Both the position numbers and the translations under genes were made by a program. Below are positions 11,767-17,878 of a stretch of 64,000 nt of DNA, piece after piece. The DNA lies in the IMG/VR virus record IMGVR_UViG_3300020048_000015, positions 32,001 to 96,000 of that record. One strand, given 5' to 3'. A model generated the notes under the pieces. The model was given only the letters and a program-made list of their open reading frames with translations. It had not been told where the DNA came from and ran no database searches. The DNA is from a virus. Every line of letters begins with the position of its first letter. Positions within the stretch are counted from its first letter, which is position 1.

Positions 11767-12525
11767 ATGAACATTAAACACAAAGTAATACAAGATTATC
11801 AATTTACAACAAATGATAAAAAAATAGTTATTCTAAAAATAGGAACAATTTTAGAAAACTATACTTATTCCAACAAGTCAACATTAGAAAACATAAAAAT
11901 GGATAAGGATATCATTGACAAAAACACATCTTTCTTTAAACAAATTGATTGGAAGGAAGAATTGAATTCTTTTATTAAAACAAACAAAATACCACAACCA
12001 GCAGTATTAACAAAAAAATTAGTTCCTTTTATTGAAGAAATGTTTATATTAAATAATATAAAATCAGATAATAATATTGACTTTGAAAAAGAACTAAAAT
12101 TTAAAGATAAAGAATTAACTGATACTAAAAATAAATTGGTAGTTTTAGAAACACAAATTAATGAAAAAATGCTTATATTAAATAATATAAAATCAGATAA
12201 GAATATTGACTTTGAAAAAGAACTAAAATCTAAAGATAAAGAATTAACTGATACTAAAAATAAATTGGTAGTTTTAGAAACACAAATTAATGAAAAAAAG
12301 AATTTATTCTATGATCAAGAATTGACTGAAAAGGAAAATAGATTATCAATTAAAGAAAGTATCTTAAATTCTTTTGAAAAAGAACTATTGGAAAAGCAGA
12401 AAAATATTTCAGAATTTAAAGATAAATTATTAATTAGGATAGTTGAACTGAAAAATATGGGATATTTAGATGGGAATATAAATGGTAAATCTTATACCCT
12501 AACAAATTTTATCAAAGGGATATAA
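11767..12525 (+). CDS. Coiled-coil protein with an internal 43-aa tandem duplication
   Basis: Heptad-like K/E/L-rich C-terminal half. Confidence 0.7.
   Translation: MNIKHKVIQDYQFTTNDKKIVILKIGTILENYTYSNKSTLENIKMDKDIIDKNTSFFKQIDWKEELNSFIKTNKIPQPAVLTKKLVPFIEEMFILNNIKSDNNIDFEKELKFKDKELTDTKNKLVVLETQINEKMLILNNIKSDKNIDFEKELKSKDKELTDTKNKLVVLETQINEKKNLFYDQELTEKENRLSIKESILNSFEKELLEKQKNISEFKDKLLIRIVELKNMGYLDGNINGKSYTLTNFIKGI
12044..12298 (+). repeat. 129-bp-period in-frame tandem duplication
   Basis: 12044-12169 and 12173-12298 are near-identical. Confidence 0.9.
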
Positions 12526-12834
12526 TTTATCCCTTAGATTAATTAGTCTAAAAAGCTTATCCAATTTATATTCAGAATATTCTACAAAATTAAATTTCAA
12601 ATATTTAATAAAATTAAAATCTTCAACACGCTTATTACAAACATCAATATGAGTAGAAATAAAATTATATCTAATCATATCCTTTTCAATATCTAAATTA
12701 GATAAAATATTATTAAATTTAATTATTTTATTTTTTAATTCACCCAAAATAGAATCAACATCATGGCTTTTATTAACCATGATGTTGATTTGTGTATCAA
12801 TATGTTTTAATGATATACTATACTTACTTTTCAT
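12499..12834 (-). CDS. Hypothetical protein
   Basis: ORF coupled to the topoisomerase gene. Confidence 0.55.
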   Translation of the reverse strand: MKSKYSISLKHIDTQINIMVNKSHDVDSILGELKNKIIKFNNILSNLDIEKDMIRYNFISTHIDVCNKRVEDFNFIKYLKFNFVEYSEYKLDKLFRLINLRDKLYPFDKIC

Positions 12835-14180
12835 TTCATTTTTTTCTTTAAATCACTTAAATCATCAATATACATTTTCTTTGGTTCAATCTTAGAAAAC
12901 TCTTCTATTTCAGTCTTCTTATCTTTATAATCACCTTTTAACTTTTCAAAAAGCTCTTTTGTTAATGACCATAATGGCATTCTTAATAAATAATCAAAGC
13001 TATCATCAACCTTTTCTAAACCCAAATTTTCTATATCTTTTATTATATCTTCTTTAGATCTATTTTTAATTTCCAATTTTCCATCCAATATAGCTTTTAT
13101 GAATTTGCCTTTGTTTGATAGAATTTTTAATTCCCTATTTAGCTTATCTAAAATGAACTCTTTTCGCTTAACATAAAAAGTTAATCTAAAGTTCACAAAA
13201 TATTCAATTATTTCTTTACTATTTTCAAATATTTTTAATTCACCAAATTCATCAAGCGTTGTAAAAATTTCAGTTGATGTTTCTTCCAACTTCAATAACT
13301 TAATTAATTTTTCTTCATCTAATTGCGCCAAAGTTTCCCTATTAAATTTGATTAAATAATTTACAGAATCTTTACAATTATCATCATAAGAAACAATTAC
13401 CTTATCATCAACCAATCCATCCAAAACAACTTCATACTTTTCATATGTCATTGATGGTGGCAATTCATCAATTCTAGCAGTAGATGTATTTACAATTTTT
13501 ACTATACCTCTTATAAACCATCTTTTATGATTATCTTTATCTTGTGTGTATGTACCATTGAAAAAATTACTATGTGGTGATACATCAACTATTTTTTTAC
13601 CTTTCAATAATTGTTCACAAGCATTTATAATATCAATAGGATTTCTATTTAAAATATTAGAAGCAAATCCAACTGCAATACCAGATGAACCATTAATAAG
13701 AATAGTCGGTATTATAGGCAGAAAATATTCAGGTTCAATACCAACACCTTCTTCTTGCTTATAATCCAATAATTCAAAATCTTTATAAAGCAACCTAAAG
13801 TTATTATTCAATTTAGTTCCAATGTAGCGAGGCGCTCCTGCCGTGGTACACCTGATCGATCCGAATTGACCATGTTCTTCTAATAATGACATATTATTTT
13901 TAAATGATTGCGCCATATTAATAATAGCAGATTCTAATGAACTTGAACCATGATGATAATAAGCTTGTGATGCTACACTACCAGCTAATTGAAAAACCTT
14001 TAATGGCTTTTCATTTCCAGTTCGCCATATATCATTACATATGAAAATTATTTTTCTTTGAACTGGTTTAAACCCATCAATACAAGATCCAATCGCTCTA
14101 CTTTCAATAGTATAAAGTGCGAAGTCTTTGTATTCCTGTGATAAGAAATCACTAATTGTCTTTTCATTAATTTTATCCAT
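12831..14180 (-). CDS. Type IIA DNA topoisomerase, breakage-reunion subunit (T4 gp52/GyrA/ParC-like)
   Basis: DGFKPVQRK, YYHHG, GQFGS, GAPRYI (catalytic Tyr), ILINGSSGIAVGFA. Confidence 0.93.
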   Translation of the reverse strand: MDKINEKTISDFLSQEYKDFALYTIESRAIGSCIDGFKPVQRKIIFICNDIWRTGNEKPLKVFQLAGSVASQAYYHHGSSSLESAIINMAQSFKNNMSLLEEHGQFGSIRCTTAGAPRYIGTKLNNNFRLLYKDFELLDYKQEEGVGIEPEYFLPIIPTILINGSSGIAVGFASNILNRNPIDIINACEQLLKGKKIVDVSPHSNFFNGTYTQDKDNHKRWFIRGIVKIVNTSTARIDELPPSMTYEKYEVVLDGLVDDKVIVSYDDNCKDSVNYLIKFNRETLAQLDEEKLIKLLKLEETSTEIFTTLDEFGELKIFENSKEIIEYFVNFRLTFYVKRKEFILDKLNRELKILSNKGKFIKAILDGKLEIKNRSKEDIIKDIENLGLEKVDDSFDYLLRMPLWSLTKELFEKLKGDYKDKKTEIEEFSKIEPKKMYIDDLSDLKKKMK

Positions 14181-14279
14181 ATATTTATTTCTATATTAAG
14201 TATTAATTTTGTTTATTTTTTTTCAAAACATAAGATGCCATAATTCTATATATAGAAAAAATATATCTAATTTTATAAA

Positions 14280-16028
14280 ATGAAAAAAATAGAAGATAAA
14301 TATAAAGTATTAAGTCACATTGATCATATATTACTTAGACCACAAACATACTTAGGATCAAATAAACCACACACATCTATCAAATGGGTTTGTGTTGATG
14401 AAAAGATGCTTAAAAAGGAAATAACATACACACCATCATTTCTTAAAATATTTGATGAGATCATAACGAATTGTTGCGATGAAAATAAAAGAAATCCTGA
14501 TACATTAAATATAATAAAAGTAAATGTAGATAAAGATAATGGAATAATATCAATATATGATAATGGTGGCATTCCTATATTATTACACAAAGAACATAAT
14601 AAATATGTCCCAGAAGTTATTTTTGGAACATTGATGTCAGGATCAAACTATGATGATAATGATGAAAGAACAGGCGCTGGTGTAAATGGTTATGGTTCTA
14701 AATTAACTAATGTATTTTCAAAAGAGTTTGTTGTATCTTCTTGTGATGGCAAAAATAGCTTCTATCAAGTTTTTTCAAATAATATGAGGGATAGAAATGA
14801 ACCTAAAATTAAAAAGAATAAAACAAATCATACTGAAATAAAATACAAACCGGACTTTGAAAAATTTGGATTGGATGATATAAACGAAGAACATTATTTA
14901 TTAATATACAAAAGAGTTATTGATATTGCTGGTTGTAATCCATCAATTAAAGTTTTCTTCAATAATATAGAAATCAAAATTAAATCCTTTGAAGACTATG
15001 TTAAATATTATGAAACAGAATATTATATTGAATCAAATCAAGATAAGAGTTGGAATATAGCTATATCACATTCTAACGAAGGATTTCAACAAGTTAGTTT
15101 TGTAAACACAACTGAAACATATGATGGGGGAACCCATGTTGATTATATTTTAAATCAAATACTAACACAACTAAGAGAATTTTTTCAAAAGAAGCATAAA
15201 GTTGATGTAAAGCCATCTGAATTAAAAAACCATATTGCTATATACTTAGATGTAACTGTTGTAAATCCAATGTTTTCTTCACAAACTAAAGAAAAATTAA
15301 TAACAGAAGTTAAGGATTTTGGACACATTCATCAAATATCTGAAAAATTAATAAAATGGATATTAAAATCTGAAATAGTTAATTCAATATTAGACTGGAT
15401 TCAAAGAAAAAAAGAAGCTGATGAAAATAAATTAACAAGAGAATTAAATAAAAACATATCTAAAATTAAAGTAGATAAATTGATTGATGCAAAAGGAAAG
15501 ACAAGGAATCTATGTTCCTTAGCAATATTTGAAGGGGATTGTCTATCAGAAGATACTTTTATTAGAATTTTAAGGGATGGTGAATTTTTTGATATCCATA
15601 TAAAAGATACCAAAGTTGGTGATTTGGTCATAACACATAATAATAGTTTTTCTGATATTTATGCTATTTCAAAAAAAATTAAAGAAAAAGCAACAATAAA
15701 GCTAAAAGGACTTGATGATATTATATGTAGCCACGAACATAAATGGTTTGTATATGATTACATTAAAAATCAATTTTATTTCGAAGAAACTAAAAATCTA
15801 AAAAAAGATAAACATAAATTAGTTAAAAACTATTTAGCATTTACTGATGATTTACATAGGATAAATAAAATTGATAATAACATCATAGATATATTTATTG
15901 ATACCATAGAAGCTAATCCAGAACATAAATTTGCAGTATATGATAATTCAGATAATAAATTTAAAATGATAGAAACAAAAAACTTAAATAAAGACATACA
16001 TTTTTTAGTAAACACCTTCAAATTATAA
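14280..16028 (+). CDS. Type IIA topoisomerase ATPase/TOPRIM subunit, N-extein (420 aa) fused to split intein N-half
   Basis: HILLRPQTYLGS, FDEIITN, DNGG, SGSNYDD, GVNGYGSKLTN, TYDGGTHV, IFEGD followed by CLSEDT. Confidence 0.92.
   Translation: MKKIEDKYKVLSHIDHILLRPQTYLGSNKPHTSIKWVCVDEKMLKKEITYTPSFLKIFDEIITNCCDENKRNPDTLNIIKVNVDKDNGIISIYDNGGIPILLHKEHNKYVPEVIFGTLMSGSNYDDNDERTGAGVNGYGSKLTNVFSKEFVVSSCDGKNSFYQVFSNNMRDRNEPKIKKNKTNHTEIKYKPDFEKFGLDDINEEHYLLIYKRVIDIAGCNPSIKVFFNNIEIKIKSFEDYVKYYETEYYIESNQDKSWNIAISHSNEGFQQVSFVNTTETYDGGTHVDYILNQILTQLREFFQKKHKVDVKPSELKNHIAIYLDVTVVNPMFSSQTKEKLITEVKDFGHIHQISEKLIKWILKSEIVNSILDWIQRKKEADENKLTRELNKNISKIKVDKLIDAKGKTRNLCSLAIFEGDCLSEDTFIRILRDGEFFDIHIKDTKVGDLVITHNNSFSDIYAISKKIKEKATIKLKGLDDIICSHEHKWFVYDYIKNQFYFEETKNLKKDKHKLVKNYLAFTDDLHRINKIDNNIIDIFIDTIEANPEHKFAVYDNSDNKFKMIETKNLNKDIHFLVNTFKL
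15540..16025 (+). mobile_element. Split intein N-half (162 aa)
   Basis: Block A CLSEDTFI right after EGD; VGDLVITH; block B CSHEHKW, duplicated as ANPEHKF; ends at TAA. Confidence 0.88.
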
Positions 16029-16227
16029 CATCACCTTCGAAACAGACTTTTGGGTTAATCCAAACAATAAAGAAATTACTGCAAGTGAAGCATATCTTAA
16101 ACAAGAATTAAAATTAAATACAGCTAAAGAAAAAGGTTTTTTTATTTTGGAAATTTGGTCAGATGAAGATAACAAAGTAGATAAAGTATTAAATTTTATA
16201 AAAAATAATATAAATAAAAATGGTTGA
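16012..16227 (+). pseudogene. Decayed Vsr/DUF559-like endonuclease C-terminal fragment
   Basis: Start-less third-frame ORF: ETDFWVNP...KLNTAKEKGFFILEIWSDE. Confidence 0.6.
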
Positions 16228-16351
16228 AAGTTTTTTAGAACTAATAGAAATTAATGATATCTTATTAGAAGATGAATATTTAAATATGGTTGATATATCA
16301 GTAAATGTAGAACAAAGCTTTTTATTATCAAATGGATTAATTTCCCACAAT
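16220..16351 (+). mobile_element. Split intein C-half
   Basis: Block F/G DISV..EQSF..NGLISHN, terminal His-Asn followed by +1 Ser. Confidence 0.9.
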
Positions 16352-16933
16352 TCAGCAATTTCATCATATCGGAAATATAGAAATAATGAAACACAAGGTG
16401 CTTTTGCATTAAGAGGAAAATTTATAAATGCATCAGAAGCAACTACACAGAAATTAATGGGAAACAATGAAGTTATTAATTTAATGGCAGCAATTGGATT
16501 AAAATTAGGACAGAAAGAATTATCAAATTTAAGATATGGTAAAATAATATTTTATTGTGATAGTGATCATGATGGTAGTTCAATTGTAGCACTCTTAATA
16601 AATTTTATGTATAAATATTGGCCTGAACTTTTTGATAAAGAAATGATTTTTAAAGCTGAAACACCAATTGTAGTGGTTAAAAATATTAAAAACAAAAAGA
16701 AAACATCATTCTATAAACAAGATGATTATAATAAATGGCTAGTTCAAATAAAACCAAAAGAATGGGAAATAGAATATAAAAAGGGATTGGCAGCATTACT
16801 TGATGATGAATATGCAGAGATAATAAATAATCCAATATTAACAAAAATAAAATCAGATGAAACATCTAAAACCCAACTAAATGTTTGGTTTGGAAAAGAA
16901 TCTGAATTGAGAAAAAATGAAATGTTGAAATGA
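16220..16933 (+). CDS. Split intein C-half (44 aa) fused to topoisomerase TOPRIM C-extein
   Basis: MVDISV...SFLLSNGLISHN then SAISS, FALRGKFIN, YCDSDHDGSSI, EYKKGLA. Confidence 0.92.
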   Translation: MVESFLELIEINDILLEDEYLNMVDISVNVEQSFLLSNGLISHNSAISSYRKYRNNETQGAFALRGKFINASEATTQKLMGNNEVINLMAAIGLKLGQKELSNLRYGKIIFYCDSDHDGSSIVALLINFMYKYWPELFDKEMIFKAETPIVVVKNIKNKKKTSFYKQDDYNKWLVQIKPKEWEIEYKKGLAALLDDEYAEIINNPILTKIKSDETSKTQLNVWFGKESELRKNEMLK

Positions 16934-17325
16934 CAAAACAATATCTATACAACCGATTATACGATACAGCTTTTATATACAATGACTATACATACAATTA
17001 TTTAGACAATAAAAAAATTCATATGCTTATAGATTCATATGGAAAGGGTGAACTAAATATAGATATTTACGAATTTAAAGATACAAATTTTGATTTTAAT
17101 AGTATAATTTTTATCATAATAAATCACGAAAATATACGAAAAATGCTTAGTGTTAAATTCAACAATTTTAAACAAACCTTTAATTTCAATCAAGTAAATG
17201 AACCATCAACCATATCATTGAATTTTTCTATAAATTCAATAGAAATTGAACAGGATTCAAATGATATAGACACAGAACTACCAATTATAATTAGAAACTT
17301 AAAATTGAATAATATTATAGATTAA
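16930..17325 (+). CDS. Hypothetical protein with C-terminal tag
   Basis: Ends IIRNLKLNNIID. Confidence 0.6.
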   Translation: MTKQYLYNRLYDTAFIYNDYTYNYLDNKKIHMLIDSYGKGELNIDIYEFKDTNFDFNSIIFIIINHENIRKMLSVKFNNFKQTFNFNQVNEPSTISLNFSINSIEIEQDSNDIDTELPIIIRNLKLNNIID

Positions 17326-17328
17326 AAA

Positions 17329-17356
17329 GAATAAGCACCAAATTTGGTGCTTATTC
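17329..17356. terminator. Intrinsic terminator hairpin between convergent genes
   Basis: gaataagcaccaa/ttggtgcttattc. Confidence 0.65.
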
Positions 17357-17878
17357 TAATAACATATATAACTTTATTTCCCTTTCTAATGAAGAAATAT
17401 AATCTCTTATATATTCTTCTTTAACCAAGTAATAATCTTCATTATATGGCCAACTATGTCTTATTTTAAGGCATTCACTTTTAAAATGACTATATATACT
17501 TTTAAATAAAGTATGACAGTCATAATCATTCATAAAATTAATTAAATTTTTAATATAATCAAATTCAGAATTTATTATTAAATCAAACATATCCTTATCT
17601 TTTAAGATAGATAAATATTGATCAATTATTAAAGACAAATCTTCTTTACAAATCACACCAGTTATTTTCGGACTGCCAAAATAAAAATATATCTTATTCT
17701 TAAGAAGATATTTTAACAATTTAATCAAATTAGTTTTAGCCCTTAAATCTATTATAACCCAAACATCACCATCTATAATTTCCAATAATCTTATATTAAC
17801 CTTATTGAAATAATAAATCATATTGTTCGATATCTTCCAATTTGGATCTGTATTCGGCAGGAAAGTGTTTAAGTCCAT
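17351..17878 (-). CDS. Hypothetical protein with C-terminal tag
   Basis: Ends LEREIKLYMLLE. Confidence 0.6.
   Translation of the reverse strand: MDLNTFLPNTDPNWKISNNMIYYFNKVNIRLLEIIDGDVWVIIDLRAKTNLIKLLKYLLKNKIYFYFGSPKITGVICKEDLSLIIDQYLSILKDKDMFDLIINSEFDYIKNLINFMNDYDCHTLFKSIYSHFKSECLKIRHSWPYNEDYYLVKEEYIRDYISSLEREIKLYMLLE

Follow-up and report, generated by a model that had tools for sequence, protein, structure and literature searches.

In the fractured genes described by Dassa et al. (2009; PMC2677866), split inteins are combined with free-standing homing endonucleases, and the examples comprise gp41-1 to -8, NrdJ-1, IMPDH-1, NrdA-2, DnaE, ligase and terminase. A Vsr-like nuclease is found in half of these fractured genes, one locus listed there is without the nuclease, and the eight host enzyme types include no topoisomerase, gyrase or gp39 (PMC2677866). 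Type IIA topoisomerases do host contiguous inteins, with 33 reported in GyrB and 50 in GyrA (Novikova et al. 2016, PMC4760082), and in phage T4 the large subunit of topoisomerase II is encoded by genes 39 and 60, which were broken inside the TOPRIM domain by insertion of a homing endonuclease (mobA) that has since decayed (T4 annotation). Here we describe a locus in a 64,000-nucleotide stretch of viral DNA (the window; bases 32001-96000 of IMG/VR record IMGVR_UViG_3300020048_000015) where, with a probability that we put at about 0.87, a T4-type topoisomerase II large-subunit gene is broken at EGD|SA by a split class-1 intein and its products are joined by trans-splicing. As in the loci of Dassa et al., two co-oriented open reading frames (ORFs) encode first an intein N-half (IntN) and a stop, and then a Met followed by an intein C-half (IntC), the element is phage-borne and the target is an enzyme of DNA metabolism. 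However, the host in the window is a type IIA topoisomerase interrupted at EGD|SA, the nuclease is a 3' remnant, and the IntN is 162 residues long with an internal duplication. Likewise, the cis inteins of GyrA and GyrB are contiguous and lie in bacterial or archaeal genes, whereas that of the window is split and phage-borne. The layout is therefore of a known kind, a fractured gene with a split intein, and the window's particular features are the decayed nuclease and the duplicated IntN extension. A full-text literature search, with most subscription journals outside its scope, revealed no type IIA topoisomerase reported to contain a naturally split intein, and this agrees, as does the Dassa host list, with the initial annotation of the window, which named no characterised example from phage.

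ORF1 (14280..16028, + strand) encodes 582 residues. The first 420 codons (14280..15539), ending AIFEGD, form the N-extein, with the GHKL ATPase, transducer and first TOPRIM strand of a T4 gp39-like large subunit, and residues 421-582, running from CLSEDT to NTFKL, form the IntN (15540..16028, 162 codons plus the TAA at 16026-16028). ORF2 (16220..16933, + strand, 237 residues) is in a different frame, which opens at 16214 after an in-frame TAA at 16211-16213. It begins MVESFLEL, and its first 44 codons (16220..16351) are the IntC, which contains the conserved block F/G and ends SNGLISHN, followed by SAISS at the start of the C-extein (16352..16933, 193 codons plus TGA), where the remaining TOPRIM sequence (Ser+1 and the DxD motif in CDSDHDG) and a TOPRIM_C tail are encoded. 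Re-derivation of these coordinates reproduced the reading in the initial annotation of an interrupted TOPRIM motif, with EGD followed by a 162-residue intein part that stops at 16028, and of a second ORF starting at 16220 in another frame with a 44-residue C-half ending ISHN-S. The proposed sum of 420 and 193 residues to a 613-residue subunit with EGDSA restored also held, and it matches the intein-less homologues of ~614 residues, such as L002 with IFEGDSAAG.

Pfam places GHKL and DNA_gyraseB domains on ORF1 (PF00204 at 8.6e-24, with a weak match to PF02518) and Toprim and TOPRIM_C domains on ORF2 (PF01751 and PF16898), and the C-extein aligned to the intein-less L002. This homologue shares 33% identity with T4 gp39, and tblastn matches to T4-like 'DNA topoisomerase II large subunit' genes were at ~35% identity. 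The T4 break lies ~55 residues downstream of that in the window (L002 residues ~474/~479 compared with 419|420). Directly upstream and divergently oriented is an uninterrupted gene for a gp52/GyrA-like DNA-cleavage subunit of 449 residues (12831..14180, - strand; PF00521 at 4.3e-93, profile positions 1-431 of 432). The GHKL, transducer, TOPRIM and TOPRIM_C regions and this gp52-like partner together identify the predicted large subunit as T4-type topoisomerase II.

The two-ORF split-intein layout is far beyond chance, and the fractured topoisomerase II gene is real and conserved. Logan contigs from two further studies run from the ORF1 stop through the gap into the start of ORF2, with 0 indels and an identical gap (X3 record 7 covers 15626-16398 and X4 record 13 covers 15826-16280). 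As contigs from three studies have the same stop and frames and are indel-free, the break is not an assembly error, and the possibility raised in the initial annotation, that the stop and frame change are sequencing errors, is answered by these independent contigs. Searches with the C-half matched 244 proteins at E≤0.001, and most of the best 120 were 237-249 residues long and aligned from query residue 1, so that the IntC is included. With the IntN there were 134 protein matches at the same threshold, and the best 120, which are representatives of 90%-identity clusters, were N-halves of ~571-586 residues or fragments, ending where the IntN ends. Among the matches listed, the same break position is thus present in >100 clusters of N-halves and >100 clusters of C-halves at 53-74% identity, with 53-63% in the intein part, and frames are intact. 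Intein-less alleles were also abundant, with 55 non-redundant loci (66 of the 80 fetched, plus L002) having one ORF with EGDSA or a close variant across the site, and the N-extein is 57-70% identical to intein-less homologues. At present the topoisomerase halves are annotated as separate 'gyrase B' or 'topoisomerase-2' genes.

The residues expected of a class-1 intein are present and conserved. Cys1 (ORF1 Cys421) was invariant in 43 N-halves and 10 loci, as was the His of block B (SHEH; intein H67), while the residue three positions before it is Ser or Thr in most and Gly in L070. In ORF2 the block-F Asp (D25), H43, N44 and S45 were invariant in 43 C-halves, as were S33, F34, L36, S37, N38, G39 and S42, and the IntC ranks among the best-conserved regions of the C-half. 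The nearest solved sequence to the IntN is the gp41-1 intein (PDB 6QAZ, 6RIZ), in which block B reads IICSEEH compared with IICSHEH here; both have Cys1, a terminal His-Asn and Ser+1, although sequence similarity is weak (E 0.0035) and the host proteins differ. An AF2 model of the IntN had a pLDDT of 81.5, and its ten best Foldseek rows were all hedgehog or intein Hint folds (E 0.03-0.3). VIA aligned residues 1-100 of the model to gp41-1, MchDnaB-1, Prp8 and Npu DnaE-N with Z of 4.5-5.0, the match to gp41-1 residues 1-90 having Z 5.0 and an rmsd of 4.7 over 88 residues. From this combination of Cys1, block-B His, block-F Asp, His-Asn, a +1 nucleophile and a modelled Hint fold, we assign the element to the class-1 inteins of the Hint superfamily.

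Modelling of the IntN with the IntC gave a score of 0.61 compared with 0.12 for the best of three controls. Of 80 solved complexes, 58 attained the mark set by this score, as did 2 of 110 mismatched pairs. Contact agreement between runs was at least 86% and partner pLDDT at least 64, and the interface is formed by IntN residues 1-101 and IntC residues 4-45. This supports predicted docking of the two halves, although since split-intein complexes have already been solved, passing this mark may show likeness to them and not binding of this IntN and IntC. Trans-splicing of the two ORF products is strongly implied. The initial annotation, which proposed that a naturally split intein fractures the topoisomerase II gene, is supported by a conserved break, invariant catalytic residues, intein-less alleles and the complex model, while the origin of the spacer between the halves as the 3' remnant of an endonuclease gene, the duplication inside the N-half and the wide occurrence of the arrangement go beyond it.

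Between the two halves a third frame is open from 16012 to 16224 without a start codon, and its TGA (16225-16227) overlaps the ATG of ORF2. The encoded residues match positions 390-443 of the intact 444-residue nuclease of a relative, L009 (BLASTP 56% identity, E 2e-20), and 16051..16227 (+ strand) is therefore what is left, at the 3' end, of a free-standing and putatively Vsr-like homing endonuclease gene, consisting of the last ~55 codons with the catalytic part gone. The order of N-half, nuclease ORF of 347-465 residues and C-half was found in 11 loci (L001, L005-L009, L050, L062, L063, L067 and L070), and the stop codon of the nuclease overlaps, or lies next to, the start of the C-half, as in the fractured genes of Dassa et al. 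In these relatives the gap is taken up by a nuclease ORF of 1.0-1.4 kb, preceded by 22-62 nt, and the ORF encodes 434-444 residues in L005, L007, L008 and L009, with related forms of 347 residues in L050 and 465 in L067. The free-standing nuclease gene is thus intact in the 11 relatives but not between the window's halves, and L004, which retains nuclease residues 350-443, represents an independent and shorter deletion.

Intact nucleases share the C-terminal domain pattern D-F...IEYNG..FHP...W. Their profile is weakly similar to I-Bth0305I of the Vsr-like (EDxHD) nucleases (PDB 3R3P; E 0.034), the matched stretch being the C-terminal part that survives in the window, whose remnant is without the catalytic part, and they also gave a weak DUF559 match (E 0.1). 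No Pfam family was found on the remnant itself, and PHROGs gave weak matches only, to phrog_22677 (E 0.0025) and to the 'homing endonuclease' phrog_3339 (E 0.0088). By comparison with its relatives, the window appears as a fractured-gene layout after nuclease decay, and with the nuclease reduced to ~55 codons the element would no longer be mobile by itself. On a distant branch of the split intein a different nuclease of 373-387 residues occupies the same place (L001:3158-4279, L062:2869-4011 and L070:2848-4011), ending KYGK in L001 and L062 and otherwise in L070, and that of L001 matches phrog_22677 and phrog_5104. The sequences suggest that the nuclease may have been replaced at a fixed intein site.

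On a quick FastTree of 67 non-redundant extein sequences, a similarity-selected sample, the 12 split alleles were scattered, requiring at least 9 state changes, about equal to shuffled labels. The nearest extein relative of the window, L014 (70%), is intein-less. Such scatter fits a mobile element, which may have homed between phages or been lost precisely and repeatedly. A first scan of viral contigs using a two-sequence IntN alignment had patterns that were too narrow and gave no match, and the loci were found with a C-half alignment. In GenBank, only 1 of 50,697 phage records carries an IntN of this family, the unannotated 462-kb LR756500.1 (L001), and no cultured phage with this IntN was found among these records. 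We also observed that the adjacent gp52/GyrA-like gene of LR756500.1 is broken (L001:5012-5551), with a 179-residue ORF that encodes the first 56 DNA_topoisoIV positions up to YHHGD, followed by a Cys-initiated Intein_splicing N-part of ~95 residues and a stop, and in this phage two neighbouring topoisomerase II genes would therefore be fractured.

Canonical natural IntN sequences have ~88-123 residues, and that of gp41-1 has 88 and is without a 60-residue extension. At 162 residues the IntN of the window runs ~60 residues beyond the canonical length, the extension comprising intein residues 103-162 (15846..16025, + strand). Residues ~58-98, comprising block B and the following hairpin (15711-15833), recur at ~120-160 (15897-16019, + strand), and internal local alignment of the window's IntN gave z=11.1. 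Values for nine relatives were z=2.3-7.3, significant in most, and the predicted strand pattern is repeated in the duplicated unit. The extension is conserved among relatives and its C-terminal NTFKL is nearly invariant. In L001 the block-B His of the second copy is lost, which indicates that the first copy is the catalytic one. The extension was modelled as a separate small beta-barrel with few contacts to the IntC; its structural matches were generic small beta-barrels (S4e, AXH, ModE-like) with Z of ~4 and were not interpreted.

A search of a 1.84-billion-protein library also revealed alleles without the extension. Three N-halves (P0311, P0323 and P0329) have an IntN of ~97-101 residues at the same EG(D)|SA site, and P0315 carries at this site an apparently contiguous mini-intein of ~155 residues, also lacking the extension, which is the sole cis form among the matches found; beyond its first ~15 C-extein residues P0315 is unlike TOPRIM, and the record is possibly chimeric or frameshifted. 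The listed matches at E≤1e-10, placed by length and position or inspected, were phage topoisomerase N-halves or fragments, except P0332 (DnaE/PolIII-alpha). Since it is conserved and short alleles exist, the extension is best regarded as a derived and selected feature. We tentatively propose, as one doubtful possibility, that it is a functional add-on which might cover or chaperone the exposed surface of the IntN before the arrival of the IntC, or gate trans-splicing. If so, the structure would define a new class of natural split intein, and the halves would provide a new orthogonal pair for ligation with Ser+1.

We envisage that both ORFs are probably co-transcribed and are translated separately, after which the canonical part of the IntN (residues 1-~100) would associate with the 44-residue IntC and trans-splicing would proceed via Cys1, the block-B His, the block-F Asp, the terminal His-Asn and Ser+1. 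The predicted product is a 613-residue subunit of ~71 kDa with EGDSA restored and the junction peptide NLCSLAIFEGDSAISSYR, which may pair with the adjacent gp52-like subunit. From the relatives, it seems that a free-standing Vsr-like nuclease gene, located at the usual endonuclease site of the intein, either caused the break or was maintained together with it, that a deletion here left the last ~55 codons of the nuclease while the intein halves probably remain under selection, and that the IntN gained its additional 60 residues when the block-B unit was duplicated in tandem.

Several observations count against this interpretation. PF14890 (Intein_splicing) scores the IntN at 19.5 bits, compared with a curated cut-off of 35.8, and the structural matches are modest (Foldseek E ~0.03, VIA Z 5-6). 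ORF2 is preceded by no recognisable ribosome-binding site, and the missing of such sites is usual in AT-rich genomes of this kind. To our knowledge the 60-residue extension has no counterpart in characterised split inteins, and splicing could be slowed or regulated by it. The extein tree was built quickly from a similarity-selected sample, and protein splicing at this locus is a prediction. An alternative that we consider unlikely is that the intein halves are a non-covalent docking module only and the enzyme assembles unspliced, as with T4 gp39 and gp60 or the Aeh1 NrdA halves. T4 provides a precedent, in that the same subunit is functional as two polypeptides, and in the complex model docking and splicing are indistinguishable. 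However, the T4 halves associate without an intein, residues needed for the chemistry alone (Cys1, block-B His, His-Asn and Ser+1) are invariant in distant alleles of the family described here, and in an unspliced enzyme ~206 intein residues would occupy the TOPRIM metal and Glu site at EGD|SA.

A decaying pseudogene, in which a mobile insertion has wrecked the topoisomerase gene and the ORFs are remnants, would account for the clearly decayed nuclease between the halves, but we judge it very improbable, given that both ORFs are full length with all Pfam domains present, the split is kept with intact frames in >100 clusters that have diverged to 53-74% identity, the IntC is highly conserved within the C-half, the partner subunit is intact, and the vicinity of the locus showed no further gene for the large subunit. 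Least probable of all is that the break is only apparent and that sequencing error, stop recoding, ribosomal bypass or a group I intron yields a cis-splicing intein. Gene 60 of T4 does have a 50-nt translational bypass, and group I introns and alternative codes are frequent in huge phages (PMC12880540). Yet the independent contigs are indel-free and two frame changes would be required, and as the N-half stop is TAA, TAG or TGA depending on the locus among the 11 examined, no single recoding or stop reassignment would read through it. A bypass like that of gene 60 is excluded because the gap in the relatives is a protein-coding gene, the 1.0-1.4 kb nuclease ORF. As to a group I intron, an Rfam search of 14000-17500 (E≤10) yielded nothing but chance matches (SNORD123, MicA and others), far below gathering scores. 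Furthermore, conservation of NTFKL before the stop, and of Met-(I)VENFLEL at the second start, suggests that the two ORFs are translated separately.

The record holding the window is 182,728 bp long with an estimated completeness of 84% and a G+C content of 24.7%, and a profile search of it found no second IntN or IntC of the topoisomerase intein family. Identical copies of both ORF proteins occur on 3-4 contigs, the largest of 353,919 bp, and the nearest GenBank records to the window are unannotated uncultured phages of 462-642 kb, which together point to a very large T4-like phage. Public sequencing runs containing the stretch are aquatic or marine metagenomes, and those listed included no RNA dataset. 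At the locus, no terminator-like site was seen between the halves, and promoter-like sites were not more frequent than in shuffles. An ATGA arrangement links ORF2 to the next ORF (16930..17325), whose ATG is overlapped by the ORF2 stop (16931-16933), and this places the C-half within a tightly packed operon. Elsewhere in the window, a 252-residue, coiled-coil-like ORF (11767-12525, + strand) contains a nearly exact tandem duplication of ~42 residues, with the unit LNNIKSD.NIDFEKELK.KDKELTDTKNKLVVLETQINEK present twice. Outside the window in the same genome, a 641-residue ORF (G000:C1:139888-141813, equal to L085:889-2814) encodes a DNA polymerase B segment (profile positions 145-240), followed at residues 131-275 by a complete Intein_splicing domain, and from this sequence the DNA polymerase of the phage seems to carry a contiguous mini-intein.

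With a break at the catalytic EGD|SA, a type IIA topoisomerase would be added to the phage enzymes that are encoded in two parts and joined by trans-splicing. The intein belongs to a large natural family of alleles (>100 clusters) with Cys1 and Ser+1 like the fast gp41-1, and its members are candidates for orthogonal protein ligation. Within this family several stages of the element are preserved, namely the empty site, the cis mini-intein of P0315, the split form with an intact nuclease, the split form with a decayed nuclease (the window and L004), and IntN sequences that are short or duplicated, and the origin of fractured genes thereby becomes testable by comparison.

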